Of a stretch of DNA of 64,000 nucleotides, positions 1 through 64,000 are shown piece by piece; within the stretch, counting starts at the first letter, position 1, and each line of letters starts with the position of its first letter. This DNA comes from Escherichia phage vB_EcoM_JNE01. The stretch lies in the sequence record OR670491; one strand, written 5' to 3'. A program made the translations under genes and the position numbers. The notes below the pieces were generated by a model. It was not told the origin of the DNA and did no database searches. It saw only the letters and a list, made by a program, of their open reading frames with translations.

Positions 1-20
1 AACATGGTAGTGTTGAGAAT

Positions 21-398
21 TTGGCTACAAAGATCATTGAAAGCCTTAAATTTGATGAATACCATAAGAGACTTGCACACAATGTTATTGGTGTTTCAAA
101 AAGAGCCACCATTCTATATTTTCCTCGTTTACAAGAATATAACTTAGAATCAAACACAGATGGAACATTCTTTCAGGTGTACCGAAAAGAAGGTGAAGAC
201 CGTGTAAGAATGTCATTACAACTTCCCGCCTCTTACACATACAGAGTTAATGATATTGAAGAGTCATGCAAGACTGAAGAAGAATTCTTTCAGGTTAGTT
301 TGTTTCATGACTTGATCTTTTCTTATGAGTTCTTTAAAGAAGTCGAGTACTTGTTTAACTTGGCTGCCGAAAAACTGAAAAAAGATATGGAAAATTGA
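21..398 (+). CDS. hypothetical protein (5' end uncertain)
   Basis: 125-aa track ORF starting at TTG; the frame stays open back to position 3, so the gene may begin upstream of the window. Confidence 0.35.
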   Translation: MATKIIESLKFDEYHKRLAHNVIGVSKRATILYFPRLQEYNLESNTDGTFFQVYRKEGEDRVRMSLQLPASYTYRVNDIEESCKTEEEFFQVSLFHDLIFSYEFFKEVEYLFNLAAEKLKKDMEN

Positions 399-399
399 G

Positions 400-807
400 A
401 TGTTTTGTCTAACTGATGATATAATTAAAGAAGTTGTAGATATACTGAATAACCCTGGTACATTCACTAAATCCACTGAGTTGATTACTGAATTTCGTGA
501 TGGGTGCTCTTATTACACAAACAATAACAGTACATGCGTGAGTCTTAACCTATCGGATGGGACTGGGGCGTTAATGCACCGTTACAGTACTCCGTTAGAT
601 GGTGTACAATTTTCTTTTTCATTGATTGATAAAGAGTACAGTCTATTCTGTGATGATTATGAGAGTCTCAATGACCTGTATCTTGATTCTAAAATGTACT
701 TCTCCGAAGAAGAACACTTCATGGATAGTACAGTTGAAAATCTAACAATTCCTTACACTATTATGGAAGAATTCAATACATTTTGCAGGAACTACGCAAA
801 TGCATGA
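400..807 (+). CDS. hypothetical protein
   Basis: 135-aa ORF; ATG overlaps the upstream stop (TGAGATG), suggesting translational coupling. Confidence 0.45.
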   Translation: MFCLTDDIIKEVVDILNNPGTFTKSTELITEFRDGCSYYTNNNSTCVSLNLSDGTGALMHRYSTPLDGVQFSFSLIDKEYSLFCDDYESLNDLYLDSKMYFSEEEHFMDSTVENLTIPYTIMEEFNTFCRNYANA

Positions 808-1267
808 CTTATATGAAGATATTAATGATGTTATTGATGTAGCATTATGGACTGTTTTCGAATACAGAACAGAAAACAAACACTGGTCTAATTGGTATAC
901 TAATGATAACCAAAAACTACTGCTAGGTCATGGTAATACCGTTGAGTGTCTTGCATTCACTCGTCATGGGGCAAGTGATGATATAAGGGATTGTTTTAAT
1001 ATACAAATATCACTACTTGGACAAGGTGTGTTGTATAAGATTGATGTTTATCATGATCGTTTATTTGTAGTGTCTGGTAGTGCTACCCGCATTGTATTAG
1101 GTTATGACATGAACCCAAGTGAAGCGGATTTGTTTATTGGTGATTTCGATAAAGACATTGATTGTGCAAGATACTTTCAATTAAGTACTTTGTATAGTTT
1201 ATGTAATATTAGTCATCGTGGATTAAAGAAGTTACAAAGTATTGCACGAAATTTAAATTCTGAATAA
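800..1267 (+). CDS. hypothetical protein
   Basis: 155-aa ORF, start overlaps the upstream gene end. Confidence 0.45.
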   Translation: MHDLYEDINDVIDVALWTVFEYRTENKHWSNWYTNDNQKLLLGHGNTVECLAFTRHGASDDIRDCFNIQISLLGQGVLYKIDVYHDRLFVVSGSATRIVLGYDMNPSEADLFIGDFDKDIDCARYFQLSTLYSLCNISHRGLKKLQSIARNLNSE

Positions 1268-1279
1268 CAGGAGAATATT

Positions 1280-1726
1280 ATGAGTTTTAATGGTAACATT
1301 GCAAAAGTACTTATTGTGTTTGAAAACTGTGAGTCCTTTTATGTTGAACAAAAAGACATTCTATGGATGCACATTGGTGATATTAAAACTAAAGTGTTTC
1401 GCTATTCTAATGTACTTAGTATCGAAAATGTAGCTGGACAGTTTGGAATTGCACTACGCAAAGAAATTGAAACCGAATTTTGGGGAAATCAAACATTACT
1501 TAATCGTTTGGATATGCGTGATGTTACGAACATTACTCTATATGACGTTAACAATGAGAGCGTCTCTTATGTTGTTGAGTGGGCTGATTATAGCGATCAA
1601 CAAACGTCAATCAATCAACGTACTTTCGTGACACCCGATGGCAATGTTGTATTCGTCAGTACTACATCTGCTTTAGTGGATGTTGATGTTGAACGTATTG
1701 ATTTCAACGCTCAGTACATGTCTTGA
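1280..1726 (+). CDS. hypothetical protein
   Basis: 148-aa ORF with AGGAG about 7 nt upstream of ATG. Confidence 0.5.
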   Translation: MSFNGNIAKVLIVFENCESFYVEQKDILWMHIGDIKTKVFRYSNVLSIENVAGQFGIALRKEIETEFWGNQTLLNRLDMRDVTNITLYDVNNESVSYVVEWADYSDQQTSINQRTFVTPDGNVVFVSTTSALVDVDVERIDFNAQYMS

Positions 1727-1759
1727 CAACAGTATGTGCACGCTGTATAATGTGCACAT
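1723..1759 (+). promoter_or_regulatory. sigma70-type promoter with a palindrome bracketing the -10
   Basis: TTGACA (1723-1728), 17-nt spacer, TATAAT (1746-1751); perfect inverted repeat ATGTGCAC (1734-1741) / GTGCACAT (1752-1759) flanks the -10. Confidence 0.5.
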
Positions 1760-1782
1760 ATTAACTTAATGGGTATTTAAAA

Positions 1783-2211
1783 ATGAGTACAGTAAAAATC
1801 AATGTACACTTTCTTGATTCATGGAAAGATGTTTGTACTGGTGTTAGTGAAGTAGAATACAGTACTGAAACTATCCACGCGGAAGATAAATGGCAAGCTG
1901 AATCACAGTTAGAAAAACTAAAAGAAACAGTAGGAACATCAGTTTCTGCTGGAACTGAGCATACACGTAAAATCATTGGTATTGATGAAATTGCACAGGT
2001 TCAGGTATTCTTGACGAACGAACAAATGATGAAGTTCATTCTTGACAACAATGTGGAACTTGCATTGGATGGTTCAGTATGGCAGAAAACTGACGGTACA
2101 AAAGTACGAGTGAAGTACCGTGTTACCATCAATGGAACTGCTATGTGTGGCATGGATTTGGAAGATGCAATCAATTACTACGTAAACAACATAAGAGGAA
2201 AAAAATGCTAA
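1783..2211 (+). CDS. hypothetical protein
   Basis: 142-aa ORF about 30 nt downstream of the promoter -10. Confidence 0.5.
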   Translation: MSTVKINVHFLDSWKDVCTGVSEVEYSTETIHAEDKWQAESQLEKLKETVGTSVSAGTEHTRKIIGIDEIAQVQVFLTNEQMMKFILDNNVELALDGSVWQKTDGTKVRVKYRVTINGTAMCGMDLEDAINYYVNNIRGKKC

Positions 2212-2567
2212 CAGTTATATTGTGTACCTTGATGTGTTGTGTTACAATTATCATATGCCGATTGATCAATAACGCCTCTTTGGAAAAAGCATTTGAGCAT
2301 GAGAGAAATCTTAAAGAGTTGGAGAACCCATCACCAATTAAGAAACAAAAGTCTCCATATTCATTACGTAGGGTGTTGCATTCCAAATCAAAAAAATGGG
2401 GATATTGTCTTTTGGAGGGTGGTGGCATCTACACATCAGTTGATGGATACTACGAAGTGAATTATGATATCAAAGAAGCAATTGAGCTTTTGTGGACTAT
2501 GGAGGATTTAGGTAATTATGAGCGTACTAAGTTTGAATTCTTACAAGATGATCCAGGAACTTCATGA
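2205..2567 (+). CDS. hypothetical membrane-anchored protein
   Basis: Internal ATG of track ORF 2145 (frame +60) preceded by AGAGGA; hydrophobic N-terminus MLTVILCTLMCCVTIIIC. Confidence 0.45.
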   Translation: MLTVILCTLMCCVTIIICRLINNASLEKAFEHERNLKELENPSPIKKQKSPYSLRRVLHSKSKKWGYCLLEGGGIYTSVDGYYEVNYDIKEAIELLWTMEDLGNYERTKFEFLQDDPGTS

Positions 2568-2718
2568 AAAACATGCTATAATTGTAGATGTAGAAAAGCA
2601 GGAAGTTGTGATGAAGAAGAAAGCCTATCAGATTCTGGATAACTTCCGCTCTAAAGCATTCATCATGAAGTTGTGTGCTGACGAGCATTTAGTAGGAAGA
2701 TTTTTATACAAGGAGTAA
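2548..2718 (+). CDS. hypothetical small protein
   Basis: Internal ATG of track ORF 2518; start choice uncertain. Confidence 0.3.
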   Translation: MIQELHEKHAIIVDVEKQEVVMKKKAYQILDNFRSKAFIMKLCADEHLVGRFLYKE

Positions 2719-2724
2719 CACAAC

Positions 2725-51952: not shown

Positions 51953-51955
51953 AGC

Positions 51956-52141: not shown

Positions 52142-52161
52142 AGTACTAAAGGAATAAACAT

Positions 52162-52356: not shown

Positions 52357-52357
52357 T

Positions 52358-52552: not shown

Positions 52553-52561
52553 GGCACTAAC

Positions 52562-52747: not shown

Positions 52748-52812
52748 CCCCTTGACATATACTCCAAGAATGATATACTACTTTCTATATAGAAACAATA
52801 CAGAGATAACAT

Positions 52813-53022: not shown

Positions 53023-53343
53023 TATAGAGAATAGTACAGGATACTAAGGTCTAGATGTGTTCCTAGGGAAGCATTATAACAGGCTTTAACATCTCGTAAA
53101 GATGTTAAAATTCAGCCTGCTCGACGTCTGAATTGTTAAAATTCAGCCTGGACAAATGCGATCACTAGGATTCTATCTAGGCTGAATCCCGTAATCACAA
53201 GTACGCATATGTAATCATATATAAACATTTCCGTGAGAAGTTTTGAGTACTGTATAGTATTAAGAATCACCGTAGGAGCACAGAATGATTAAGAATGCAC
53301 GGGAATGATTCAGAATGATTCAGTACTGATATGTCACTAAGTA

Positions 53344-53369
53344 GGCAGAGGAAGTCTGCCGTACTTTTT
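53344..53369 (+). terminator. rho-independent terminator (approximate coordinates)
   Basis: GGCAGA-ggaag-TCTGCC followed by GTACTTTTT. Confidence 0.45.
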
Positions 53370-53707
53370 AGTTTCCAAGCTCCTTTTCCATTTTTCAAAT
53401 TACATCAAATGCAATCAAAAGTAATCACGCAATGATTAGTACTGAATTATTACTTTCACCTTAATTTCAAATACCCGTTGACCCTTCGGGGTAAAATTCC
53501 ATTACCCCTTGAGGCTCCAGCAAAAAGTTGGTTAGTACTCCATCCTAAATCTCGATCCTAAAAATTTTGGAGTACCTATGAAATAAAAGTTGGATCTTCG
53601 AAAGTTGAAATTTACGTTGGGATGATTAGGATTTGTGAACTATAATGTAGTTCAAGTTGGAGTACAGAGTGAGAACAATCTAGAGTACTGAAAGATGAAA
53701 TAACATC

Positions 53708-53735
53708 TTGACAATACAATTCAGTACTGTATAAT
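53708..53735 (+). promoter_or_regulatory. orphan sigma70-type promoter in non-coding region
   Basis: TTGACA, 16-nt spacer ending cagtactg, TATAAT; no ORF within 1.3 kb downstream. Confidence 0.45.
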
Positions 53736-54202
53736 GTTGTACATAGGGTGAGGGAACGGCGGCAACTGTTCCTTAATCTCAGTATCATGTCGTGAGACAT
53801 TACGCAAGTTATATCCTCCTGTGCATAGTGCTGGTGGTTATCTCTTGAACCTCATTTTTTCTCGTGAACTAAACAGTACTGATATTAACAGAATGGTAGC
53901 AGTACTGATATTAATCTAATGCATTATGCCACCAGCTTGTGCTGGTGGATTCCCTCTAACAGTATTCAGTACTACATGATGGTCTTCATCCTCCTGGGGT
54001 AACATAGTGAAGGTTATGATGGCAGTACTGAATACTCCAAACTCAAGATGGATTAAGGGTGTAGTACTGACGGATTTTGGGTGTAGTTACCCTGGATGGA
54101 TTTTGGACGTAGATATGTCTAGCCCTCCAGAAGTCTGGAAGTAAAGATGGCTATCCATCTAGACGGCTAAACGGCTAGATTTCTGGATGGCTGGACGTTT
54201 GG

Positions 54203-54234
54203 ACGGCTAAACGGCTAAACGGCTAAACGGCTAA
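54203..54234. repeat. iteron-like tandem repeat (ACGGCTAA x4)
   Basis: Four perfect 8-bp units with degenerate copies and GGATGG/GGACG motifs on both sides. Confidence 0.6.
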
Positions 54235-54878
54235 ACGTCTGGATGTATGGATGGCTAAATCAAAATTTTATTTTGTTTTTTCCAATAGTTCCCCTACCGC
54301 GTGGGGATAGTTTCCCCGCAGTATCTGGTGTTAGATTTTTCTGAATCTGGAATCATTATCTTATAAACTGGGGGCAATGTCAACGGCCTGGACGGATATT
54401 TTTAAAAATTTTTTCAGTACTGAATTTTGGGCGTAACTATGCACCCGGTGGGCTTGAGTCTTTCTCGACTTGATGGAACTATTATACAGTACTGAAAAAA
54501 TAAAGCAATACCCTGGAAGCAAAAAAGTTTTAATTAATTTGCTTGCTATCCTGGGCCGGACTATGGTACTATATTTCAGTACTGAGAAAGTGCGTTTACC
54601 TGCTAGGGTGCGGGAGTGTATCCTTTTTTTATATCTTGAATTTTGGACGGATCTTCCCACCCCCTGGGGTATCCGCTTTCTCGCGTCTATGTAGTAATTA
54701 TACGCTTTTTCAGGATCAAGTCAATACCTAAAAACAAAATAATTGAAAATAATTTAACGCGTTTAAACGGCCCGTAACGCCCTGGAATGATTAGAATGGT
54801 GCAAATGTATAGCTTAGGTGTATTAATGCGTTAGAATGCGTCTGAGGCCGTTTTATGGGGTGTAGTAGTGATTTGGTT

Positions 54879-55046
54879 GATTCAGTACTGAATAATAGTA
54901 CTCCTATATAGAAAGATAGTTCCCCTGGATTGATTCAGTACTGAATGATAGTACTGAATAATAGTACTCCTATATAGAAAGATAGTTCCCCTGGATTGAT
55001 TCAGTACTGAATGATAGTACTGAATAATAGTTCCCCTATATAGAAA
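54879..55046. repeat. tandem direct repeats (unit 53-66 bp, about 2.5 copies)
   Basis: Unit GATTCAGTACTGAATGATAGTACTGAATAATAGTACTCCTATATAGAAAGATAGTTCCCCTGGATT, each copy carrying 2-3 AGTACT palindromes. Confidence 0.65.
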
Positions 55047-55079
55047 GAAAACTATTTTAAAAGTATTTGTAGAAAGTAC

Positions 55080-55139
55080 TTGCACAGTACTGATAAAAGC
55101 GTATAATGTTTTACATCGAGAGCGGGAACTCTTCCCGCT
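55080..55139 (+). promoter_or_regulatory. promoter / 5' stem-loop cassette
   Basis: TTGCAC, 16-nt spacer, TATAAT (55102-55107), gttttacatc, hairpin AGCGGGAA-ctc-TTCCCGCT (55121-55139). Confidence 0.6.
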
Positions 55140-55162
55140 ACACTTTAAGAGAGATTAATACG

Positions 55163-55525
55163 ATGGCGACTCAAATCACTAAAATCATTGCTAACCTGGT
55201 TAACTTCCGCGACGATATGAAAGATCTTCCGGCGGCAACGGTTAAAACTCACATTGACGCATACCGCGAACTGATTAAAATGCTGCCGCTTAAGCGTGAA
55301 CAATACGCCGCCACCGTGATGCTTGATGCGATGATCCATAAGATGATCGCCAGTGATTTAACGATGGCTTATCAGTATATGGGTGAATTGTTCGCGGTGT
55401 ATAGTAAACCAGTACCAGGAATGGAAAGTACAGAAGTATTACACGGTTTAAATTTAAAACAAGATGCATGGGATAATATGCCTCGTTTCCTGGTATGGGC
55501 TGACAGTGGCAAAATTTACGAATAA
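55163..55525 (+). CDS. hypothetical protein
   Basis: Internal ATG (frame +57) of track ORF 55106, downstream of the cassette hairpin. Confidence 0.5.
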   Translation: MATQITKIIANLVNFRDDMKDLPAATVKTHIDAYRELIKMLPLKREQYAATVMLDAMIHKMIASDLTMAYQYMGELFAVYSKPVPGMESTEVLHGLNLKQDAWDNMPRFLVWADSGKIYE

Positions 55526-55538
55526 GTTAAAAATTAGT

Positions 55539-55597
55539 TTGACAGTACTGAATAAAAGCGTATAATGTTTTACATCAGGTGGGGAATAGTTCCCCAC
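55539..55597 (+). promoter_or_regulatory. promoter / 5' stem-loop cassette
   Basis: TTGACA-N16-TATAAT; hairpin GTGGGGAA-tag-TTCCCCAC. Confidence 0.6.
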
Positions 55598-55617
55598 TAT
55601 ATAAGAGGATTAAAAAA

Positions 55618-55857
55618 ATGGCTAAATCAAAAATGTTCTTAGGTCACAAAAATAAAACTCATTGGAATGTAAGCCTTTGGATTAATAACGATGAGGGATT
55701 GTATCGGTTGGCCCAGGACTTTATTAACGATAGCACTAATCGCAATGATGCGGCCCGTCATATGATGTTATTTTTAGAACAGACTGGACAAGATAAAACA
55801 CCGGACGGATTCAAATATAGCACTACTGCGATCCGTGCGGCAATGGTAGGAATGTAA
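55618..55857 (+). CDS. hypothetical protein (paralog of 57659..57898)
   Basis: 79 aa; shared GHKNKTHWNVSLWINN ... TPDGFKYSTTAIRAAMVGM. Confidence 0.5.
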   Translation: MAKSKMFLGHKNKTHWNVSLWINNDEGLYRLAQDFINDSTNRNDAARHMMLFLEQTGQDKTPDGFKYSTTAIRAAMVGM

Positions 55858-55943
55858 TAGAATATATTTAAAGTACTATCATTTTTTTGCGATAGTACTT
55901 TATAATAGTGTTTTATTCATACACCAACGATAAGGGCAACAGC

Positions 55944-56210
55944 ATGAATATTAAGTATTTTGCGACGCGTGAACAAGCTCGGATCGCCGCTCGCCAGGAC
56001 GGGGCAACGTTTAAAGATATGGGCGTACAATCGGAACGTGGTAAACGTTGGGCCATTGTAAAGCGTAGTACCGCCAGATCATTACAGTACTGGTTAGCGG
56101 CCTTAAAAAGTCCCGATAGTGTATCGCGTCGAGTGGTAGAAATAAAGCTCGACCGAAAGGGCAACCGCGTGACCGTGTACCGTACTAAAAAGATAGCAGT
56201 ACTTGAATAA
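55944..56210 (+). CDS. hypothetical basic protein
   Basis: Internal ATG (frame +36) of track ORF 55908. Confidence 0.45.
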   Translation: MNIKYFATREQARIAARQDGATFKDMGVQSERGKRWAIVKRSTARSLQYWLAALKSPDSVSRRVVEIKLDRKGNRVTVYRTKKIAVLE

Positions 56211-56217
56211 AAAGTAC

Positions 56218-56276
56218 TTGCAAACTATGTTTAATGGCGTATAATGTTTTACATCGAGAGCGGGAACTCTTCCCGC
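56218..56276 (+). promoter_or_regulatory. promoter / 5' stem-loop cassette
   Basis: TTGCAA-N16-TATAAT; hairpin GCGGGAA-ctc-TTCCCGC. Confidence 0.6.
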
Positions 56277-56297
56277 CTATAACCTGGAGTAATAAAA

Positions 56298-56528
56298 ATG
56301 ACTAATATGTATATGACTGAAGTTAAAACCGTAAAAGATACTACCACGAATAAAACTACTTACTTACAGCGGATCTGCGGTGTATGGCAACGTATCAGCA
56401 AATCAAAGTACTTTAAATTAACATCATATGCAAATCGTTCGGATTCATTCAGTACTGAAATAAAAGGTAATAAAGTACACCAATACGGCACTTATTATTA
56501 TTACAGCCTGGACGCGATTGCAGTATAA
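56298..56528 (+). CDS. hypothetical protein
   Basis: 76-aa ORF with GGAG RBS. Confidence 0.45.
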   Translation: MTNMYMTEVKTVKDTTTNKTTYLQRICGVWQRISKSKYFKLTSYANRSDSFSTEIKGNKVHQYGTYYYYSLDAIAV

Positions 56529-56778
56529 GCAGTTTACAAATCTTTACAATTGCCGGTATTGACTTATTTTGTCAGTACTGGCATAATGTATTCATTGGCA
56601 GATAAGCCGTAGCCCATAGGGTGCGGGAGTGTATCTATAGAAAAATTAGTTTAGTATAGTTACAATTGTGCACCCGGTGGGTTAGCTGTTGTCATGGGGT
56701 ATATTATGCCAGTACTTGATAATTCTGTCAATACTTTTTTTTTACTATTCAGTACTGAAAACTATTTTTAAAAAGTAC

Positions 56779-56896
56779 TTGCAAACTATGTTTAAAGGCG
56801 TATAATGTTTTACATCAGGACGGGGAACGAAATAAGTAACTTCCCGTTAAGTAGCCCAGGAGTAAGGCACACGAAAAACTCCCCTGATAAAATAGT
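56779..56896 (+). promoter_or_regulatory. orphan promoter with ~90-nt structured leader (candidate small RNA)
   Basis: TTGCAA-N16-TATAAT (to 56806), then tacatcaggacggggaac...acgaaaaactcccctga with no ORF; a second promoter follows. Confidence 0.45.
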
Positions 56897-56924
56897 TTGA
56901 CAAATGTTTTTAAAAGCGTATAAT
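56897..56924 (+). promoter_or_regulatory. sigma70-type promoter
   Basis: TTGACA-N16-TATAAT, 32 nt upstream of the 56957 ATG. Confidence 0.55.
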
Positions 56925-56956
56925 ACTTACATCAACTACTGAATGAGGGTTACAAA

Positions 56957-57568
56957 ATGAAAACTATCACTACTACTACTTTCGTTATGGATTTTTCTGA
57001 ATTGAACGCAGAACAACAAACGTCAGCTATCGAACTGGTTCGGGATCGTGAGCGTTCATGTGAGGATAATTTCTTTGCTGAGGGCGTTATCGAGTACTAT
57101 AAAGAAACAGTACTACCAGAATACGGCATAGATGAAGCTGAATTGCAATACAGTGGTTTTTGGTCGCAAGGTGACGGTGCATCAATCAGTACTGACAGCG
57201 TGGACGCAGTGAAGTTTTTACGCAAGATTAAAGCGTTAACGAAATATCGTTCTATCCGTCACTTGTTGAATGAAGATGATTTGGCAATGAGTGTAGAACG
57301 TTCACACTCTCGCTACGCACACGAAAACACGGTAAGCGGGTACATTGAATCGGCTTACACTGATTTAACCGCAAAACAAGAAACGTTAGTTAATGAGCTT
57401 GAGGAACTACTCACTGATACTATTCGTGAATTGTCCCGCAAGTTGTACCGTGATTTAGAGAATGCATATGAGGATCAATTCACTACTGAAAACATTACGG
57501 CACTGATTGAGGGTAACGAATATCAATTCAATGTTATTGATGGCGTAGTGGAATCAATCGAATATTAA
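56957..57568 (+). CDS. hypothetical acidic protein
   Basis: 203-aa ORF with GAGGGT RBS. Confidence 0.5.
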   Translation: MKTITTTTFVMDFSELNAEQQTSAIELVRDRERSCEDNFFAEGVIEYYKETVLPEYGIDEAELQYSGFWSQGDGASISTDSVDAVKFLRKIKALTKYRSIRHLLNEDDLAMSVERSHSRYAHENTVSGYIESAYTDLTAKQETLVNELEELLTDTIRELSRKLYRDLENAYEDQFTTENITALIEGNEYQFNVIDGVVESIEY

Positions 57569-57580
57569 TTTAAAAAGTAC

Positions 57581-57640
57581 TTGCAAACTAAGTTTAAAAG
57601 CGTATAATACTTTATATCGAGGCGGGGAGTGGTTCCCCGC
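57581..57640 (+). promoter_or_regulatory. promoter / 5' stem-loop cassette
   Basis: TTGCAA-N16-TATAAT; hairpin GCGGGGA-gtggt-TCCCCGC. Confidence 0.6.
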
Positions 57641-57658
57641 TCAAACGAGGATTTAAAA

Positions 57659-57898
57659 ATGGCTAGTACTAAAACTTACAACGGACACAAAAACAAAACT
57701 CATTGGAATGTAAGCCTTTGGATTAATAACGGTGAGTCATTGTATCGGCTTGCTCAAAGTTGCATCGCACAAAGTAGAACTAAAGATATTGCTGCGGAAT
57801 GTATGTACCGCAGATTAAAAGCCAACGGTACTACTACAACGCCGGACGGCTTTAAGTATAGCACTACTGCGATCCGTGCTGCAATGGTTGGAATGTAA
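57659..57898 (+). CDS. hypothetical protein (paralog of 55618..55857)
   Basis: 79 aa sharing the GHKNKTHWNVSLWINN motif. Confidence 0.5.
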   Translation: MASTKTYNGHKNKTHWNVSLWINNGESLYRLAQSCIAQSRTKDIAAECMYRRLKANGTTTTPDGFKYSTTAIRAAMVGM

Positions 57899-57955
57899 TA
57901 TTCAGTACTGAGATAATGGCGGGTAATAGTTCCCGCCTTTACTGAGGGTTATCTA

Positions 57956-58216
57956 ATGAGTAAAGTAATTAGCTATACAGCACTAAGCAAGACATTATCT
58001 ATTAGCCAGTGCACCGATGGTTATTGGCTATTTGATGAAACGCGTGGCATGAATTTAGCGATGCGTGCAAAAACTGCTGAGGCGGCGTATATTCAAGCAC
58101 TGGAATACTACCAGGAACGTTTAAAGGAAGTAGAAGAAGATTATAAAAGCCTCAAAGCGAAAGTAGATCATTTCGTCGGTCAATTCAACGAGGAAGACGA
58201 CGACAAACAATATTGA
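57956..58216 (+). CDS. hypothetical protein
   Basis: 86-aa ORF preceded by hairpin GGCGGG...CCCGCC and GAGGGT. Confidence 0.45.
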   Translation: MSKVISYTALSKTLSISQCTDGYWLFDETRGMNLAMRAKTAEAAYIQALEYYQERLKEVEEDYKSLKAKVDHFVGQFNEEDDDKQY

Positions 58217-58224
58217 AAAAGTAC

Positions 58225-58283
58225 TTGCAATTAGTTTTCAGTACTGTATAATGGTTTACATCAAAGGGAGAAATGGTTCTCCC
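58225..58283 (+). promoter_or_regulatory. promoter / 5' stem-loop cassette
   Basis: TTGCAA-N16-TATAAT; hairpin GGGAGAA-atgg-TTCTCCC. Confidence 0.6.
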
Positions 58284-58302
58284 TGGTAATGAGGAAAATA
58301 AA

Positions 58303-58524
58303 ATGGCTAATATCACTACTCTTTCCCAACTGGAAGCACTGGTGAAATCTATGCGGGAACATGCCGACAAAATCGGCGTACAAGATCCAGCCGTTTGCTT
58401 CTGCGACGAATTGAATGATGATACCCTGGTAATAGCAGAAGTCCAGGACGTTTCTAACTATTCCTCGCGTTACACTGGCGGCGTAGCAAATAAAGGCGAC
58501 TTCTGTTTATACCTTACAAAATAA
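58303..58524 (+). CDS. hypothetical protein
   Basis: Internal ATG (frame +30) of track ORF 58273. Confidence 0.45.
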   Translation: MANITTLSQLEALVKSMREHADKIGVQDPAVCFCDELNDDTLVIAEVQDVSNYSSRYTGGVANKGDFCLYLTK

Positions 58525-58529
58525 CAACG

Positions 58530-58559
58530 CGGGGAGATAATAACTCCCCGTTACTTTTT
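58530..58559 (+). terminator. rho-independent terminator
   Basis: CGGGGAG-ataataa-CTCCCCG followed by TTACTTTTT. Confidence 0.6.
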
Positions 58560-58692
58560 CAGTACTGAATCATTTAATAGACGGATCTCGGCACCCGGTG
58601 GGTTAGTGACTGTTTCGTCTTGATGTAGTAATTATGCCAGTACTGGATGCACTTGTCAACAACTATTTTTCAAATACTTTTTATTAAAATAC

Positions 58693-58740
58693 TTGCAATT
58701 AGTTTTTAAACGCGTATAATGTTTTGCATAGGGGGAGCGG
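58693..58740 (+). promoter_or_regulatory. promoter / 5' stem-loop cassette
   Basis: TTGCAA-N16-TATAAT; short hairpin GGGGA-gcggt-TCCCC. Confidence 0.55.
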
Positions 58741-58767
58741 TTCCCCTGGTAACTAAGGAATAATAAA

Positions 58768-59004
58768 ATGCTTGAACAAATCAAATCAACGTCTGCGAAT
58801 GTAACGGGAACGGTATCACACTTTACTAGTGATGAATCGCGTGGTGTTCCTTATTGTGCTGTACATGTAAACACTGATGGCAACTACTGGTTTACGGTTT
58901 ACGGATCATATTCATTTGGACGGCCAGGGCATCAAAAAATTCTGGATAAAGTACAACCAACGGGTAAAAATATCACTGCCGAAATGTTTTATAAAAAATC
59001 ATAA
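58768..59004 (+). CDS. hypothetical protein
   Basis: 78-aa ORF. Confidence 0.45.
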   Translation: MLEQIKSTSANVTGTVSHFTSDESRGVPYCAVHVNTDGNYWFTVYGSYSFGRPGHQKILDKVQPTGKNITAEMFYKKS

Positions 59005-59009
59005 AGTAC

Positions 59010-59069
59010 TTGCAATTAGTTTTTAGTACTGTATAATATTTTACATCGCAAGGGGAAACGGTTTCCCCT
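59010..59069 (+). promoter_or_regulatory. promoter / 5' stem-loop cassette
   Basis: TTGCAA-N16-TATAAT; hairpin AGGGGAAA-cgg-TTTCCCCT. Confidence 0.6.
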
Positions 59070-59088
59070 GGTAACTAAGGATAATCAA

Positions 59089-59388
59089 ATGAAAGTTGCA
59101 ATCATCGCCCTGGCTTTATCTGTATCGTCTTTCGCTGTTAACGCTTCCGTTGATGTACCGCGTGAAAAATTCATTCAGTGCACTGTTGCAATGACTAACG
59201 AGGAAACGGCTGAGATTGTTACCAAATCCCTGGAACTGGCCCCTGCAATGTTTGCTAATGGCCCGTACCATGAAGAAGATGATCAGGGTAGCACGACCAT
59301 CTATTACGATGCAAAAAGTAAACGCGGTTCAGTTACTGTAATGGATACTGAGAAAGTTACATTCACGGGAGTAATTAATTGTTTTTAA
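59089..59388 (+). CDS. hypothetical secreted protein
   Basis: Signal-peptide-like MKVAIIALALSVSSFAVNA. Confidence 0.5.
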   Translation: MKVAIIALALSVSSFAVNASVDVPREKFIQCTVAMTNEETAEIVTKSLELAPAMFANGPYHEEDDQGSTTIYYDAKSKRGSVTVMDTEKVTFTGVINCF

Positions 59389-59405
59389 TGAAGTACTGAA
59401 TCATA

Positions 59406-59433
59406 AGCCCACTATAAGAAGTGGGCTTTTTTT
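59406..59433 (+). terminator. rho-independent terminator
   Basis: AGCCCAC-tataagaa-GTGGGCT + T7. Confidence 0.6.
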
Positions 59434-59475
59434 ATTGTAGTACTGAATACTTTAAAAATAGTTTTGAAATAGTAG

Positions 59476-59618
59476 TTGACATTACCAGGGAAAGGCGTAG
59501 AATGTATTACATCAGGACGGGGAACACTAAGTAGACCGCCAGTAAGTCGAACGAAAAACTGGACACGACCTGGAAACTTTGATAAACTAACTTACACTTT
59601 AATTGAGGAATTAAAAAA
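59476..59618 (+). promoter_or_regulatory. promoter with long structured leader (second copy of the 56807 leader motif)
   Basis: TTGACA-N16-TAGAAT, then tacatcaggacggggaac ... cgaacgaaaaactgg, 115-nt leader before ATG. Confidence 0.45.
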
Positions 59619-60098
59619 ATGGCAAATGTAAAATCATTCTTTAAAGCACTGGTATCTTCTGACGTATCTATCGCCGCTGAATTGCTGGCTGACCTGGATA
59701 ATGATACCATGAAAGCAGTACGCAATAATTTTAATATGGCGTACAGTGCAGCAAAAGAACTGCAAGCCAAAAAGGTAGCAGAACTGGAAGCGGCAAAGGC
59801 AGAACGTGAAGCAGAACTGCAAGCAACAATCGAAAGCATCCAGGCGGCGGTAAGTGGATTGGATATCGAGATCGTAACCGATATGGCACATAAAGCCCTA
59901 GCTGCAAAATACGGTGAAGTAAAAGCGGTTAAAGAAAAGAAATGGATTCAGGACCGCGTTAACGTAGTACTTGACAACGGGGAAGAATATCTTATTCCTG
60001 TACGCGGTAACTGCATTGCCGTAGTACTGGACGCGATTAACTCCAGTGGTATGACACGCGAGGAATGGATCGAAGCTCATCGCAAAGTTGAAGCATAA
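59619..60098 (+). CDS. hypothetical protein
   Basis: 159-aa ORF, Ala/Glu/Lys-rich central segment. Confidence 0.5.
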   Translation: MANVKSFFKALVSSDVSIAAELLADLDNDTMKAVRNNFNMAYSAAKELQAKKVAELEAAKAEREAELQATIESIQAAVSGLDIEIVTDMAHKALAAKYGEVKAVKEKKWIQDRVNVVLDNGEEYLIPVRGNCIAVVLDAINSSGMTREEWIEAHRKVEA

Positions 60099-60119
60099 CA
60101 ATAAAAGTACTGAATCACT

Positions 60120-60146
60120 AGCCCACCTTAAACGGTGGGCTTTTTT
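60120..60146 (+). terminator. rho-independent terminator
   Basis: AGCCCACC-ttaaac-GGTGGGCT + T6. Confidence 0.6.
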
Positions 60147-60300
60147 GTGTTTATCGTTTACCAGGCCACCAGCACCGCCTAGAAACGATTCTAACGCATT
60201 AAACTGATTATCTGATGCATTGCCCTAGCTGGTGGCGTTAAGGCTGTAAGAACGCGATTGAGAGCGTTTAAAGTATTTTGCAAAAAGTAATAAAAAGTAC

Positions 60301-60328
60301 TTGCACGATTAAGAGATTAGCGTATAAT
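60301..60328 (+). promoter_or_regulatory. sigma70-type promoter
   Basis: TTGCAC-N16-TATAAT with A-rich upstream tract. Confidence 0.5.
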
Positions 60329-60373
60329 TAATTACATCAAGGCAAGACACCTTAACTAACTGAGGATATAAAG

Positions 60374-60526
60374 ATGAATACTTATGACCTGGATTGTTTT
60401 ACTTTACAAGTAATGTCAGTATGCAGTAAGAAAGATTGGTCATCAAAGGAATTTAAAGCAGTTATCGCGTGTGCAAAACACGGCAAGACTATCAATGAAA
60501 CGGCATCAATCATTGATAAACTTTAA
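60374..60526 (+). CDS. hypothetical 50-aa protein
   Basis: MNTYDLDCFTLQVMSVCSKKDW... after GAGGA; not in track. Confidence 0.35.
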   Translation: MNTYDLDCFTLQVMSVCSKKDWSSKEFKAVIACAKHGKTINETASIIDKL

Positions 60527-60534
60527 AAAATAGT

Positions 60535-60563
60535 TTGACAATAGTTTTAAGTACTGGCATAAT
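60535..60563 (+). promoter_or_regulatory. sigma70-type promoter (class B, CATAAT -10)
   Basis: TTGACA, 17-nt spacer ending agtactgg, CATAAT. Confidence 0.5.
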
Positions 60564-60595
60564 ACATACATCAACTACTGAATAGGAATTAAAAA

Positions 60596-60823
60596 ATGGC
60601 TATTATCATTACTCGCGTATCTGGTACTACTGGCAACGAACAAGTAGTTGCAGTCATTACCAACAAGGAAGGTGCGGAATTGCAAAATGCAATGAATACC
60701 TGGGCCGTTAATGAGTTCGGTCAGTGGGCAAGTGTAGCATACATTGAAACCTATCAAGTGCCGTCGATTAGTTTAACTGATTTGGGCGTTGAGCGTATCC
60801 TTTGCCTGGATGAATTAAATTAA
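60596..60823 (+). CDS. hypothetical protein
   Basis: 75-aa ORF. Confidence 0.45.
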   Translation: MAIIITRVSGTTGNEQVVAVITNKEGAELQNAMNTWAVNEFGQWASVAYIETYQVPSISLTDLGVERILCLDELN

Positions 60824-60831
60824 AAAAGTAC

Positions 60832-60891
60832 TTGCAAAGTAAATCGAATAAAGTATAATACATTACATCAAGGGGAGAAATGGTTCTCCCC
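60832..60891 (+). promoter_or_regulatory. promoter / 5' stem-loop cassette
   Basis: TTGCAA-N16-TATAAT; hairpin GGGGAGAA-atgg-TTCTCCCC. Confidence 0.6.
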
Positions 60892-60908
60892 ACTACAAGG
60901 AAACTAAA

Positions 60909-61052
60909 ATGAAAACTTGTCAATGTGGTCATAAATCTATTACGGGTTTTAAGCGGGGCGTTGCTCTTTGCCAGTACCATTATAATTTACAAGTATGGGG
61001 TAAAGAATGGGCCGACCAGGTGGAAGCAGCAAAGAAAGCAAAAAGTAAGTAA
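60909..61052 (+). CDS. hypothetical 47-aa Cys-rich protein
   Basis: MKTCQCGHKSITGFKRGVALCQYHY...; not in track. Confidence 0.35.
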   Translation: MKTCQCGHKSITGFKRGVALCQYHYNLQVWGKEWADQVEAAKKAKSK

Positions 61053-61070
61053 AATATTATCACAGTACTA

Positions 61071-61099
61071 TTGACATAGTTTGATAGTACTGGCATAAT
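61071..61099 (+). promoter_or_regulatory. sigma70-type promoter (class B)
   Basis: TTGACA-N17-CATAAT. Confidence 0.5.
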
Positions 61100-61140
61100 A
61101 GATTTTATCAAGACAACATATTAATTTAAGGAATACAAAA

Positions 61141-61464
61141 ATGGCTAAAACTATCATTAACACCGTTTCCCTGGCTGCAATCCGTGCAATCAATGTTGAC
61201 GGTAAACGTTGGACTGATACATATGGCAATACTTATCATTCTTGTCATGTAAGCGTTGAACTGGATAACGGTTTGAATGATCTGGCGGTTGAATCATTTA
61301 CTTATGGCTATGAAGATGCATATCAACAAACGGCGTTAGATCTATTAAAGGAATCAGTAGACGGGCTTAATACTGATGAAACCTCCCTTACTCGTTTGTG
61401 CAATGATCTTAATATCCCGTTGCATTGTACTGTACAGAATGTTAAACGCAAAAAAGATCTTTAA
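61141..61464 (+). CDS. hypothetical protein
   Basis: 107-aa ORF, AAGGAA RBS. Confidence 0.5.
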   Translation: MAKTIINTVSLAAIRAINVDGKRWTDTYGNTYHSCHVSVELDNGLNDLAVESFTYGYEDAYQQTALDLLKESVDGLNTDETSLTRLCNDLNIPLHCTVQNVKRKKDL

Positions 61465-61544
61465 TTAGCTTTACTTTATGCAGATACTTTGATATAGTGT
61501 CTGCATAGGGGAAAGAAATTAAATTAACTTAAGAGGATCGTATA

Positions 61545-61814
61545 ATGAAAAATATCAGTACTTTAATCGATACAGGTACTCATGTTCGTCGGTCTATGGT
61601 TGCAACCAGTACTACAAAACAAGTACCAAGCGGTTATCTTGTATTTGTGCACGATGGTAAACTCCTGGAACGTTCAATCAATTTTGATGTTAAAAACAAT
61701 TGCCGTTTTATTATCTTTAAGCGTGAGCAATATAAAATTGATTTACCAGCAAAGCCCATAAGCGGGGCGTACAACGTGCAATCATTGTTTGAACGTCAAC
61801 CATACACCTATTAA
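61545..61814 (+). CDS. hypothetical protein
   Basis: 89-aa ORF, AGAGGA RBS; near-palindrome ATGCAGATACT...AGTGTCTGCAT upstream. Confidence 0.45.
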   Translation: MKNISTLIDTGTHVRRSMVATSTTKQVPSGYLVFVHDGKLLERSINFDVKNNCRFIIFKREQYKIDLPAKPISGAYNVQSLFERQPYTY

Positions 61815-61865
61815 TCAAAACATCGTTAGCGGTCGATTTAGGCCGCGTATATTGGGGATTATACC

Positions 61866-62138
61866 ATGAACGTTAATCAAGTACTGAATGAGATCGAAAG
61901 CATCATTAAACCAATGAAACGCATTGATGCTATGTTAACACCGGAAGAATGCCGCCTTTATGAGCGTTACAGCGTCGAACAAGTCCAGGCAATGGCTATG
62001 GCTACCCCAGCCGTTAAACCGCCTGAGAATGCGTTACAGGACGTTACAGGGGATTATATCATCAATCCAGTACTAGGGAAGATGGCTGCAATCACCGAAG
62101 ATCAACAAGATTACTTAAGTCAGTACTTAAAAGGTTAA
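61866..62138 (+). CDS. hypothetical protein
   Basis: 90-aa ORF. Confidence 0.45.
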   Translation: MNVNQVLNEIESIIKPMKRIDAMLTPEECRLYERYSVEQVQAMAMATPAVKPPENALQDVTGDYIINPVLGKMAAITEDQQDYLSQYLKG

Positions 62139-62143
62139 TTAAT

Positions 62144-62353
62144 ATGCTTACTGTACAGGATAAGATCGACATCTTAAAGGTTAATATGTATGTGATTGAT
62201 GCAGTACCTGGTAAAGTATTTGCATACGATGACAGTACTGTAAGCGATTTCTACTATAGCCAGGACGTGGGGGATCTTTCTGTACAGTCGGTTATTGAAA
62301 ACGTAGTTAATGCAGCGTATGAGCATTTACTTTCAAATAGTACTTGCAATTAG
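62144..62353 (+). CDS. hypothetical protein
   Basis: 69-aa ORF; its last codons and stop lie inside the downstream promoter -35 (AGTACTTGCAATTAG). Confidence 0.45.
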   Translation: MLTVQDKIDILKVNMYVIDAVPGKVFAYDDSTVSDFYYSQDVGDLSVQSVIENVVNAAYEHLLSNSTCN

Positions 62354-62403
62354 TTTTTAAACGCGTATAATGTTTTACATGAAGGGGAGAAATGATTCTC
62401 CCC
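62344..62403 (+). promoter_or_regulatory. promoter / 5' stem-loop cassette
   Basis: TTGCAA-N16-TATAAT; hairpin GGGGAGAA-atga-TTCTCCCC. Confidence 0.6.
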
Positions 62404-62422
62404 ACTAATTAAGGAATATGAA

Positions 62423-62569
62423 ATGAAAGCATCAAAAAAGAGTAATACTAAGAAAGCACGTTCAACCTTAGATGGGGTATTCCCTTTACGTTTCGTTGAT
62501 GAAGTGGTGTCCTACCCGCCGGGCCTTACTCCTGAGATGGTAGAAAGTTTGCGTAAATCTAAAAAATAG
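62423..62569 (+). CDS. hypothetical 48-aa basic protein
   Basis: MKASKKSNTKKARSTLDGVFPLRF...; not in track. Confidence 0.35.
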   Translation: MKASKKSNTKKARSTLDGVFPLRFVDEVVSYPPGLTPEMVESLRKSKK

Positions 62570-62572
62570 TAC

Positions 62573-62632
62573 TTGCAATTAGTTTTTAGTACTGTATAAT
62601 AGTTTACATGAAGGGGAGAAATGATTCTCCCC
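62573..62632 (+). promoter_or_regulatory. promoter / 5' stem-loop cassette
   Basis: TTGCAA-N16-TATAAT; hairpin GGGGAGAA-atga-TTCTCCCC. Confidence 0.6.
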
Positions 62633-62650
62633 AATAACAGGAGAATCAAA

Positions 62651-62803
62651 ATGAAACAATACAACGCTCGGTTTGATGTTACTATCGGTAACGGCAAAGG
62701 TCAATTCTCTTTCAGTACTCGCAAAAGTTATACAGAAAACTTCCTGCGTAATTGTGCACTGACCGCCGCTCAAATTAAACATTACTTTCAGGCTAAAAAA
62801 TGA
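62651..62803 (+). CDS. hypothetical 50-aa protein
   Basis: Internal ATG (frame +30) of track ORF 62621, after AGGAG. Confidence 0.4.
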   Translation: MKQYNARFDVTIGNGKGQFSFSTRKSYTENFLRNCALTAAQIKHYFQAKK

Positions 62804-62889
62804 AAACATTAGCTTACTATAGTTCGGCCCTGGTCGGTGCATTGATCGCGGCGTTGTTAGTAACCTATCTATTCTTTATGGTGATTTAA
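62800..62889 (+). CDS. possible 29-aa hydrophobic micro-protein
   Basis: MKTLAYYSSALVGALIAALLVTYLFFMVI; ATGA overlap with the upstream stop. Confidence 0.25.
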   Translation: MKTLAYYSSALVGALIAALLVTYLFFMVI

Positions 62890-63033
62890 ATGAATCCAAC
62901 AGGTTTAAACTATAAAAGTTGTTCGGCGTTTACGAAAGCAAATAAAGCGAATGCACGTAAAGCGAAAGTACAAGAATACATCAAGCAAGGCATGACGCGA
63001 AAGGCGGCGATTCTAAAAGCTAAAAATAAATGA
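62890..63033 (+). CDS. hypothetical 47-aa basic protein
   Basis: MNPTGLNYKSCSAFTKANKANARKAKVQEY...; start directly after the upstream stop. Confidence 0.3.
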   Translation: MNPTGLNYKSCSAFTKANKANARKAKVQEYIKQGMTRKAAILKAKNK

Positions 63034-63040
63034 AAAAAGT

Positions 63041-63071
63041 GGTTGACTCCGGTCAGCCATTTTGCTATTAT
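63041..63071 (+). terminator. composite terminator-promoter element
   Basis: GGTTGAC-TCCG-GTCAGCC-ATTTTGC-TATTAT. Confidence 0.5.
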
Positions 63072-63175
63072 ATATTCATTGAGAGATAGCTCACTAGCCC
63101 ACAGGGTGCATAAGTGTATCTATTATATGAGTATTGAGTACTGAAAACTATTTTAAAAGTATTTGTAGAAAGTAC

Positions 63176-63234
63176 TTGCAAACTATCTCAATAAGCGTAT
63201 AATGTTTTACATCGAAAGGGGAAACGGTTTCCCC
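63176..63234 (+). promoter_or_regulatory. promoter / 5' stem-loop cassette
   Basis: TTGCAA-N16-TATAAT (63198-63203); hairpin GGGGAAAC / GTTTCCCC (63218-63234). Confidence 0.6.
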
Positions 63235-63254
63235 TGATAATAAGGAAACAAATC

Positions 63255-63596
63255 ATGACTATCTCAATTGCTCAATCTAACTTTGAAAACGAAATCATCG
63301 CCCAGGCACTGCGTTTAAATGATGGTCGGGCCGAAATTAATTACGGTTTCAATTCAGGCGGTTGTGAAAAATATCAGTACTTTGTAACGGCTGATGGCGG
63401 TGTCCTGGGTATCAATACAGTTATTGTAAACATCCAAAAAATTAATTTCAATGATCCAGACGATAGCCAGTTTTACATCACTGGCGTAGACGTGAACTAT
63501 GAGGATGACTCACTAACTGATGATCACACTGGTGAGAAGTTAGAGAGTGCATACGGTGAAGATGATTATCAGTCAGTACCGGAAGATTTTGAATAA
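63255..63596 (+). CDS. hypothetical acidic protein
   Basis: 113-aa ORF, AAGGAAA RBS. Confidence 0.5.
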   Translation: MTISIAQSNFENEIIAQALRLNDGRAEINYGFNSGGCEKYQYFVTADGGVLGINTVIVNIQKINFNDPDDSQFYITGVDVNYEDDSLTDDHTGEKLESAYGEDDYQSVPEDFE

Positions 63597-63611
63597 TATT
63601 AAAAAAATAGT

Positions 63612-63671
63612 TTGACAATAGATTATAGTACTGTATAATAGTTTACATCAAGGGGAGAAAAACTTCTCCCC
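63612..63671 (+). promoter_or_regulatory. promoter / 5' stem-loop cassette
   Basis: TTGACA-N16-TATAAT; hairpin GGGGAGAA-aaac-TTCTCCCC. Confidence 0.6.
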
Positions 63672-63693
63672 ACTAACAGAGAGAGAAAACAAA

Positions 63694-63906
63694 ATGGCTA
63701 ATATCTGCACTGTACTGAAAAATGCAAAACAAGTTTTATTTTCTGATCACGATCATTTAAACAAGGATATTACTGGCGTTCGGAATATCAAAGATGTAAA
63801 AAGTGTTATGGGTATCTATTGCAATATGAAACGTGTTGGAACGTTCGGCGACAAAGTACTATACCAGGCAGGGGATTACAATTTTACACTGACTATCATT
63901 AACTAA
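63694..63906 (+). CDS. hypothetical protein
   Basis: 70-aa ORF. Confidence 0.45.
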   Translation: MANICTVLKNAKQVLFSDHDHLNKDITGVRNIKDVKSVMGIYCNMKRVGTFGDKVLYQAGDYNFTLTIIN

Positions 63907-63934
63907 AAATATATTACCAGTACTATTAAATCTA

Positions 63935-63963
63935 TTGACAACGTTTGATAGTACTGACATAAT
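63935..63963 (+). promoter_or_regulatory. sigma70-type promoter (class B); gene continues beyond window
   Basis: TTGACA-N17-CATAAT, then acatcaactacactactaaggaattaaaaaat at the window edge. Confidence 0.45.
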
Positions 63964-64000
63964 AACTTTTATCAACTACACTACTAAGGAATTAAAAAAT

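Follow-up and report, generated by a model that had tools for sequence, protein, structure and literature searches.

This analysis concerns the palindromic hexamer AGTACT in a 64,000-nucleotide stretch of the genome of Escherichia phage vB_EcoM_JNE01 (sequence record OR670491), here called the window and numbered from its first letter. The closest record in megablast searches was phage Turkey5, at about 95% identity, which places the window in the genus Asteriusvirus. Within the Rak2-like jumbo myophages of E. coli, Asteriusvirus forms the 121Q/PBECO4-like branch. Our own heuristic gene caller, which was least sure between 49 and 55 kb, placed 131 genes in the window, and these occupy 84% of it. 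A long block of small genes on the plus strand includes a gene for EndoV and one for a sigma70-family sigma factor (9958-10920) with Pfam matches to regions 2 and 3. Nine tandem RCC1-like paralogues of 357 to 447 amino acids occupy the minus strand (37697-48965), and about 10 paralogous small open reading frames (ORFs) of roughly 60 amino acids, whose products start M-x-E/H-x-K-E/D-Y/F-Y, occupy the plus strand (49067-53022). The small-ORF array adjoins a direct terminal repeat of roughly 21 kb, which starts near 53340, where position 1 of phage fEgEco12 aligns; the termini of the fEgEco12 genome were confirmed by experiment (PMC13070987). Some 20 immediate-early sigma70-type promoters lie on the plus strand of the terminal repeat (53684-63963) and carry AGTACT in fixed registers.

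AGTACT was found 243 times in the window, against 22.7 copies expected from 100 dinucleotide-preserving shuffles (standard deviation, 5.1; largest value, 33). The preliminary description of the sequence had put the expectation at about 20 and the observed number at well over 100, and both estimates were borne out. AGTACT is the most over-represented hexamer of the window and exceeds its order-3 Markov expectation of 94. A maximal-order Markov model predicts 207 copies, a figure that is uninformative because the AGTAC and GTACT pentamers mostly belong to the hexamer itself. The extended form CAGTACTG was present in 53 copies where 1.1 was expected, and TTCAGTACTGAA was present in 8. Coding DNA carried 3.0 copies per kb and noncoding DNA 8.0, a 2.7-fold difference. 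Preferences in the flanks were weak (C before and G after the hexamer, T or A three bases out), and information outside the hexamer did not exceed 0.34 bit per position. Because the flanks carry so little information, the copies of AGTACT are not copies of one repeat, and a dispersed repeat or mobile mini-element was rejected for want of an extended flank in common, the exceptions being a 66-bp tandem repeat and the promoter cassettes.

All remaining 6-bp palindromes occurred at or under expectation, and 14 GC-rich ones, among them TGGCCA, GGTACC, GGATCC, GCATGC, CTGCAG, CCATGG, CAGCTG, and GTCGAC, had zero copies where 4 to 9 of each were expected. Nearly the same set of palindromes was empty in phages GAP32, 121Q, and Munch. 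The earlier remark that phages usually deplete palindromes is thus strongly true of this genome, and such avoidance elsewhere makes the exception of AGTACT more striking. Restriction avoidance in the clade is unusually thorough, which fits a largely unmodified DNA.

Two thirds of the copies (160 of 243) fall in coding sequence, where they use all three frames (70, 53, and 37 copies) and are spread evenly along gene length. Shuffling synonymous codons within genes 300 times gave 52.4 +/- 6.2 coding copies (largest value, 70) and permuting codons gave 27 +/- 5, such that the observed number is in 3-fold and 6-fold excess, respectively. AGTACT was written at 70 of the 142 Ser-Thr pairs, at 36 of the 80 x-Tyr-x opportunities, and at 53 of the 110 x-Val-Leu opportunities, a use of synonymous opportunities of 45 to 49% per frame compared with the 9 to 15% expected from phage codon usage. 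Moreover, the dipeptides S-T (142 versus 88) and V-L (148 versus 107) were enriched but their reversals T-S and L-V were not. An artifact of codon usage or amino-acid content was rejected, as the excess persisted with protein sequence and codon usage fixed; a loss of enrichment once codon usage was accounted for, which the preliminary description had named as fatal to its proposal, was therefore not observed. The highest coding density, 8.9 per kb, was found in the small-ORF array. Genes of mobile HNH/homing endonucleases carried AGTACT at about the usual coding density, and thus their AGTACT density in the window gave no signal of amelioration. We conclude that AGTACT is enriched independently of what the DNA encodes.

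To measure conservation, 34 kb of the window was aligned to 121Q at 83% identity. AGTACT was intact at 107 of 151 sites (71%), whereas control hexamers within 60 bp were intact at 44% (z of about 6.7). Per-base identity was 0.86 to 0.92 over the six bases and fell to about 0.81 from the first flanking base. One-mismatch neighbors of AGTACT in all but one class stood at 1.1 to 2.2 times expectation and none was depleted; the pair AATACT/AGTATT stood at 1.41 times. Since deamination neighbors were not depleted, a very-short-patch-type repair or conversion bias was rejected, and since the neighbors were barely enriched, the recognized unit is the exact hexamer. We conclude from the alignment that AGTACT is under purifying selection on exactly six bases.

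Individual sites turn over while their density is kept. Protein-guided codon alignments covered 18.7 kb in five orthologous late genes from fEgEco12, CBB, Serratia phage BF, Muenster, and Munch, which represent five genera at about 65% nucleotide identity. The genes encode a tail-sheath stabilizer, a structural protein (1.5-kb gene), a ClpA-like ATPase, a second structural protein (10-kb gene), and a baseplate wedge protein. Each of the five genomes had 33 to 47 copies of AGTACT in these genes, but 89 of the 137 site columns were unique to one genome and a single column was common to all five. In core regions the gaps between copies were more even than Poisson (coefficient of variation, 0.72 to 0.86), and the fraction of opportunities used was 0.40 where another site lay within 60 bp but 0.65 where the nearest one was 240 to 480 bp away (p = 0.007). 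Apart from promoter pairs at 20 to 23 bp and terminator pairs at 8 bp, the pair-distance spectrum showed no clear period, and helical phasing or periodic spacing was rejected on that ground. Maintained density, turnover, and even gaps together indicate selection for coverage of the genome and not for particular positions. We conclude that AGTACT behaves as a density-selected genome word, being an exact word found in coding and noncoding DNA alike that is under purifying selection and turns over at constant density.

The enrichment extends through one clade. All enterobacterial Rak2-like genera sampled had AGTACT at 5.6 to 18 times chance, as seen in the core region of 121Q (76 observed, 12.7 expected), RaK2 (119 and 12), GAP32 (253 and 13.8), Yersinia phage fHe-Yen9-04 (188 and 11.4), Salmonella phage Munch (52 and 9.3), and the structural regions of fEgEco12 (68 and 10.8), CBB (72 and 11.3), Serratia phage BF (75 and 9.7), and Muenster (66 and 7.9). 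Relatives outside enterobacterial hosts avoid the word, with 4 observed against 13.4 expected and 0 against 9.9 in two regions of Pseudomonas phage PA5oct and 0 against 6.0 in Xanthomonas phage XacN1. The host was near expectation: 50 kb of E. coli K-12, a control proposed in the preliminary description, contained 3 copies where 4.8 were expected and showed no enrichment. Full-text literature searches returned no description of AGTACT or GCGC bias in these phages. The genome papers of CBB and RaK2 describe RpoD-like promoters with UP-like elements and methyltransferases, and AGTACT is not mentioned in them.

A second word shows the opposite bias in the same clade. GCGC was absent from the window, where 43.5 copies were expected, and was the only 4-mer so affected; in about 480 kb from nine enterobacterial Rak2-like phages it was again absent, against an expectation of about 280. 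GCGC was normal in PA5oct (110 observed, 99 expected), present in XacN1 (49 and 107), and found 342 times per 50 kb in E. coli (6.8 per kb). Absence of GCGC and enrichment of AGTACT thus co-occur in the clade, and both are missing in the Pseudomonas and Xanthomonas relatives. That AGTACT might be a by-product of GCGC removal, by two transitions from GCGC to GTAC, was rejected, as about 43 expected GCGC cannot account for an excess of about 326 GTAC.

AGTACT takes fixed positions at early promoters. In the -35 register, seen 11 times as AGTAC-TTGCAA, the word begins 5 bases before the -35 element and overlaps its first base; in a related register, TTGAC-AGTACT was seen 3 to 4 times. In the -10 register, seen 12 times as AGTACTg-TATAAT, the word begins 7 or 8 bases before the -10 element and abuts it. 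Both arrangements, as aaAGTACTTGCAA and AGTACTgTATAAT, had been pointed out in the preliminary description. Some early promoters carry two copies 20 to 23 bp apart, or about two helical turns, such as those with AGTACT at 58220 and 58240 (-10 element at 58247) and at 59005 and 59025 (-10 element at 59032). Outside the terminal repeat, AGTACT abuts the -10 element of a plus-strand promoter at 24463-24475 (cAGTACTgTATAAT) and of another at 26862-26874. The -35 register was common to the window, 121Q, GAP32, and fHe-Yen9-04, and hence to Asteriusvirus, Mimasvirus, and Eneladusvirus; the -10 register occurred in the window, 121Q, and GAP32 (Asteriusvirus and Mimasvirus) but not at a count of at least 2 in fHe-Yen9-04. 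The registers recur even though the early regions cannot be aligned between genera. When 2.9 million IMG/VR contigs were searched for exact matches to the two-site pattern AGTACTTGCAA-N9-12-AGTACTNTATAAT, only Rak2-like genomes and fragments were returned. AGTACT therefore stands in fixed positions relative to sigma70-type -35 and -10 elements but is not confined to promoters, as promoter-like sites hold only about 30 of the 243 copies.

Terminators also take up the word. About nine hairpins between 36420 and 46644 combine a GC-rich stem, a U run, and a location downstream of a gene, and together they contain about 14 of the 243 copies. One, on the plus strand (36420-36465), has CCCAGTACTG in one arm and folds at -20 kcal/mol (z of -6.7). 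The others are minus-strand intrinsic terminators between the RCC1-like genes (37669-46644), with stems formed from GCCAGTAC or GTACTGGC that fold at -9 to -16 kcal/mol (z of -3.6 to -6.4) and are each followed by a U run; they lie in the intergenic stretches 37669-37696, 38903-38979, 40156-40229, 41574-41645, 42798-42868, 44060-44136, 45319-45394, and 46469-46644. Stems of the type gccAGTACTnnAGTACTggcTTTT, which had likewise been noticed by eye, fold at -9 to -16 kcal/mol with z of -3.6 to -5.2. Every RCC1-like gene is served by a separate TATAAT-type promoter and by a terminator with AGTACT in its stem. Relatives' annotations call the RCC1-like products "DNA condensation" proteins, a label that looks like an apparent carry-over from the RCC1 name.

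AGTACT is also dense next to the genome end. A left-end leader (53340-55100, plus strand), in which just two marginal short ORFs were called (53821-53919 and 54019-54144), contains 21 copies of AGTACT in 1,761 bp, or 12 per kb, mostly as AGTACTGA(A/T); orientation of AGTACTGA there was 15 versus 7, which was not significant on its own. Within the leader, the 66-bp tandem repeat (54884-55048, plus strand; 2.5 copies, Tandem Repeats Finder score of 316, 97% matches) contributes seven copies, in agreement with its place in the preliminary description. That description also put AGTACT at junctions between small ORFs; examples exist at 50115 and 52134/52142, but the word fell within the last 9 nucleotides of only 1 of the 131 genes. 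Its broader framing of AGTACT as an element of promoters, terminators, and junctions holds insofar as such sites exist and fails insofar as most copies, two thirds of them, are coding.

Several other features of the terminal region were noted. The physical end near 53340 lies 13 bp past the AGTACT at 53322 and directly follows four tandem copies of the 10-bp unit CAGAATGATT (53281-53345), a region that is a candidate for terminase recognition. Within the leader, positions 54159-54259 hold a tandem 8-bp unit, ACGGCTAA/ACGGCTGG, with a period of 8, 16, or 48. Between 53740 and 63700, a GC-rich conserved hairpin (such as GGGGAGAAatggTTCTCCCC or GCGGGAActcTTCCCGC) is found in the 5' untranslated regions at about +8 of the early promoters, followed by a ribosome-binding site, and is probably an mRNA-stabilizing or regulatory leader. 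The E. coli Chi sequence GCTGGTGG occurs six times against 0.64 expected, a number reached in 0 of 100 shuffles, at 11162, 53830, 53929, 53941, 60166, and 60228, the last five of which are in the early region of the terminal repeat. An inverted Chi pair (53929, minus strand; 53941, plus strand) lies some 600 bp in from the physical left end, and the Chi copies near that end could shield entering DNA from RecBCD. Several relatives have unrelated sequence in place of the neighboring small-ORF array, as indicated by the many Asteriusvirus genome alignments that start only at window position 53130. Farther left, the gene at 26522-26845 is a homologue of a phage CRJP21 gene annotated as a "restriction enzyme"; it had no Pfam match and fell in a PHROG of unknown function, and the annotation looks unsupported.

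How might one word come to be written throughout a genome? Because two thirds of the copies are coding and positions turn over at a kept density, the genome-wide, density-selected word is the primary property, and regulatory elements also take it up. Enrichment beyond codon usage and selection at the DNA level make a sequence-specific recognition site the natural reading. The preliminary description had suggested a binding or recombination site, and only a site of recognition is indicated, recombination having no specific support: ends of homology blocks against 121Q lay within 20 bp of AGTACT in 10 of 31 cases, compared with 17% at random (p of about 0.02), in a test that did not control for block ends in intergenic DNA, where AGTACT is denser, and the association with recombination breakpoints is accordingly weak and uncontrolled.

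We tentatively favor, as the leading possibility and at somewhat under even confidence, that AGTACT marks the recognition sites of a clade-specific DNA-recognizing protein with two-fold symmetry, in an array kept by selection on density, and also provides operators at early promoters. The palindromic form suits a dimer that reads double-stranded DNA, and a signal acting at the RNA level would need no palindrome. The restriction of the two-site pattern to Rak2-like contigs argues for a lineage-specific reader over a general host one, and the reader of the enterobacterial Rak2-like phages is most likely phage encoded. We infer that it binds rather than modifies DNA and that it represses at promoters. 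In such a mechanism, selection would keep AGTACT roughly every 200 to 650 bp throughout the genome of about 350 kb, and the protein would thereby occupy phage DNA at about 40 to 200 times the site density of host DNA. At early promoters, one copy would sit on the upstream edge of the -35 element and one would abut the -10 element, about two helical turns apart; occupancy could then occlude RNA polymerase, and early promoters would be shut off as the protein accumulates.

Several points weigh against this proposal. Transcription factors usually tolerate degenerate, longer sites, whereas Type II methyltransferases or nucleases more typically recognize a 6-bp word of this all-or-none kind with weak flanks. 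A repressor needs no thousand or so coding sites, and so a second, genome-wide role must be assumed. When about 25 window proteins were scanned against Pfam, PHROG, and PDB, no DNA-binding candidate emerged, and only the sigma factor, an HNH endonuclease, and EndoV were recognized. The supplement on fEgEco12 offers candidate leads only, in the form of weak winged-helix annotations made with HHpred and of the products Gp185, Gp226, Gp307, and Gp390. Assignment of copies to coding or noncoding DNA depends on heuristic gene calls, and the relatives were represented by stretches of 30 to 122 kb and not by complete genomes. Lastly, a second class of promoters, in which the -35 element is embedded in a terminator hairpin (aaGGGTTGACTtcgGTCAGCCCtttttgcTATAAT), lacks AGTACT; its -10 elements are at 20038, 22093, 24009, 30173, 31064, 32785, and 63066, and by analogy it resembles the composite terminator/promoter cassettes of T4-type phages (PMC4122927).

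The main rival to a bound array is that a DNA methyltransferase, or another base-modifying enzyme of the clade, acts on AGTACT, which would then serve as an epigenetic self-mark, for instance by telling incoming DNA apart from newly replicated DNA at early promoters or by setting phage DNA apart from that of the host. The sharp six-base boundary of conservation and the barely enriched near-cognates are in the style of Type II recognition, and enzymes are at hand in the form of a PF05869 Dam-family enzyme in GAP32, fHe-Yen9-04, and Asteriusvirus, two methyltransferases in fEgEco12 (Gp162 and Gp455), and two in RaK2, for which methylation has been reported (PMC3622015). That methylation, however, was at CpG, which AGTACT does not contain, and fEgEco12 DNA was cut normally by ten enzymes, ScaI not among them (PMC13070987). 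Moreover, the distribution of the enzymes does not track AGTACT when two families are followed by Pfam and tblastn: Xanthomonas phage XaC1 has the Dam-family enzyme as well, and most of the clade lacks the g080 type. Targets of methylation are normally not enriched either. We consider a self-mark unlikely. We give still less credence to AGTACT being a processing site required at regular intervals along the 350-kb genome, whether for an endonuclease whose nicks or cuts provide the ends for recombination-dependent replication, for a primase able to start on either strand, or for a topoisomerase. An exact word with density-selected, slightly even spacing of 200 to 650 bp would suit such a site, T4-type genes for recombination and replication occur in the clade together with a topoisomerase II, and one gene of the window specifies an HNH/homing-type endonuclease of 474 amino acids. 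Against this, known primases read trinucleotides and need no enrichment, about 1,000 double-strand cuts at palindromes per genome would be destructive unless the sites were protected, no enzyme has been linked to AGTACT, and the fixed promoter registers would be left unexplained.

Two further explanations appeal to the host or to no reader at all. Because enrichment is limited to phages of Enterobacterales, AGTACT could provide decoys or targets for a protein of those hosts, the obvious candidate being the nucleoid-occlusion factor SlmA, and so block division or titrate the protein; the SlmA consensus GTGAGTACTCAC is a 12-bp palindrome with AGTACT at its center, in which G1, T2, A4, and G5 are strongly required and position 3 is a purine (PMC3020112). 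In the window, the flanks are T-n-C and GT is not enriched, with G at the G1 position at background (43 of 243) and position 3 mostly C (106 of 243). The full site GTRAGYRCTYAC occurred 0 times in the window and 0 to 1 times in the 121Q, RaK2, and GAP32 loci, and on the grounds of the wrong flanks and the lack of a full site, SlmA decoys were rejected. The two-site promoter pattern is, moreover, missing from all other IMG/VR phages, other coliphages included. We hold a host reader of any kind to be very improbable. Hardly credible, in our estimate, is that AGTACT is a mere component of promoters, terminators, and repeats or a neutral by-product of codon usage, of mutation or repair bias, or of repeat expansion. 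The word does occur in promoters, terminator stems, and a tandem repeat, and it is denser in noncoding DNA, but the majority of copies are coding, even along genes, and in all frames, they exceed both codon-shuffle controls, their flanks carry little information, one-mismatch neighbors are not depleted, and the sites are under purifying selection.

The opposite biases of AGTACT and GCGC raise a wider idea. Total purging of GCGC over five genera suggests a lethal target, such as that of a phage-encoded GCGC-specific nuclease that degrades host DNA. AGTACT occurs at 2 to 12 per kb in phage compared with 0.06 per kb in E. coli, and these phages might tell self from host by words, AGTACT being the positive word read by a protecting or organizing protein and GCGC the negative word cut by a nuclease, though we think this quite unlikely.

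A clade that purges palindromes to an extreme nevertheless writes AGTACT at about half of the places its proteins permit and has kept it in at least five genera. If read by a protein, the word would imply a strong, unrecognized genome-wide DNA-protein interaction in phages under development for therapy, and the reader could reveal how immediate-early promoters are shut off, how a very large unmodified genome is organized or protected, or whether viruses employ self words akin to bacterial Chi and uptake sequences. There are practical consequences as well. ScaI and Eco255I recognize AGTACT, and restriction of either type should devastate these phages. AGTACT also offers an easy diagnostic mark for the clade, and recoding or synthetic-genome work on these phages must respect it.

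Among known systems, the nearest analogues in mode of action are short genome words and TF1 of phage SPO1. Like Chi (read by RecBCD), the uptake sequences USS and DUS, and the FtsK-orienting polar sequences KOPS, AGTACT is an exact short word that is many-fold enriched in coding and noncoding DNA. Like them too, it enters genes through synonymous and even amino-acid choices, turns over in position at a kept density, and is lineage specific. The cellular words differ in being asymmetric and orientation dependent and in occurring about once per 1 to 5 kb of a chromosome, whereas AGTACT is a viral 6-bp palindrome found once per 0.1 to 0.65 kb. The proposed reader would be similar to TF1, an abundant phage-encoded protein that binds genome-wide, has preferred sites that overlap early promoters, and turns off early transcription. 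TF1, however, recognizes hydroxymethyluracil DNA and bendable sites and not an exact palindrome. No TF1/HU homologue was encountered here, although no search aimed at one was made. For promoter architecture, the IncP regulators KorA and KorB act at identical palindromic operators in fixed registers at the -35 flank and over the -10 element, as seen here, but at about a dozen operators of 12 to 13 bp, none of them in genes, whereas the AGTACT hexamer is mostly coding.

The sites of SlmA in E. coli and Noc in B. subtilis are likewise palindromes that are scattered over the genome and have a dimeric reader (PMC3020112). They number tens per chromosome compared with about a thousand for AGTACT, and the outer positions of the SlmA site are not matched here. 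The promoter-early-stem-loop (PeSL) cassettes of T4-type phages are modules of early promoter and stem-loop that flank small variable ORFs (PMC2839356, PMC4122927), and the window has modules of this kind. PeSLs, however, are about 50 bp long, are intergenic only, and are thought to act via homologous recombination (PMC2839356, PMC4122927), and the PeSL model fails to explain a hexamer enriched within conserved core genes. Finally, the avoidance of restriction sites by phages concerns the same class of word, the 6-bp palindrome, but with the opposite sign: AGTACT is enriched and not depleted.

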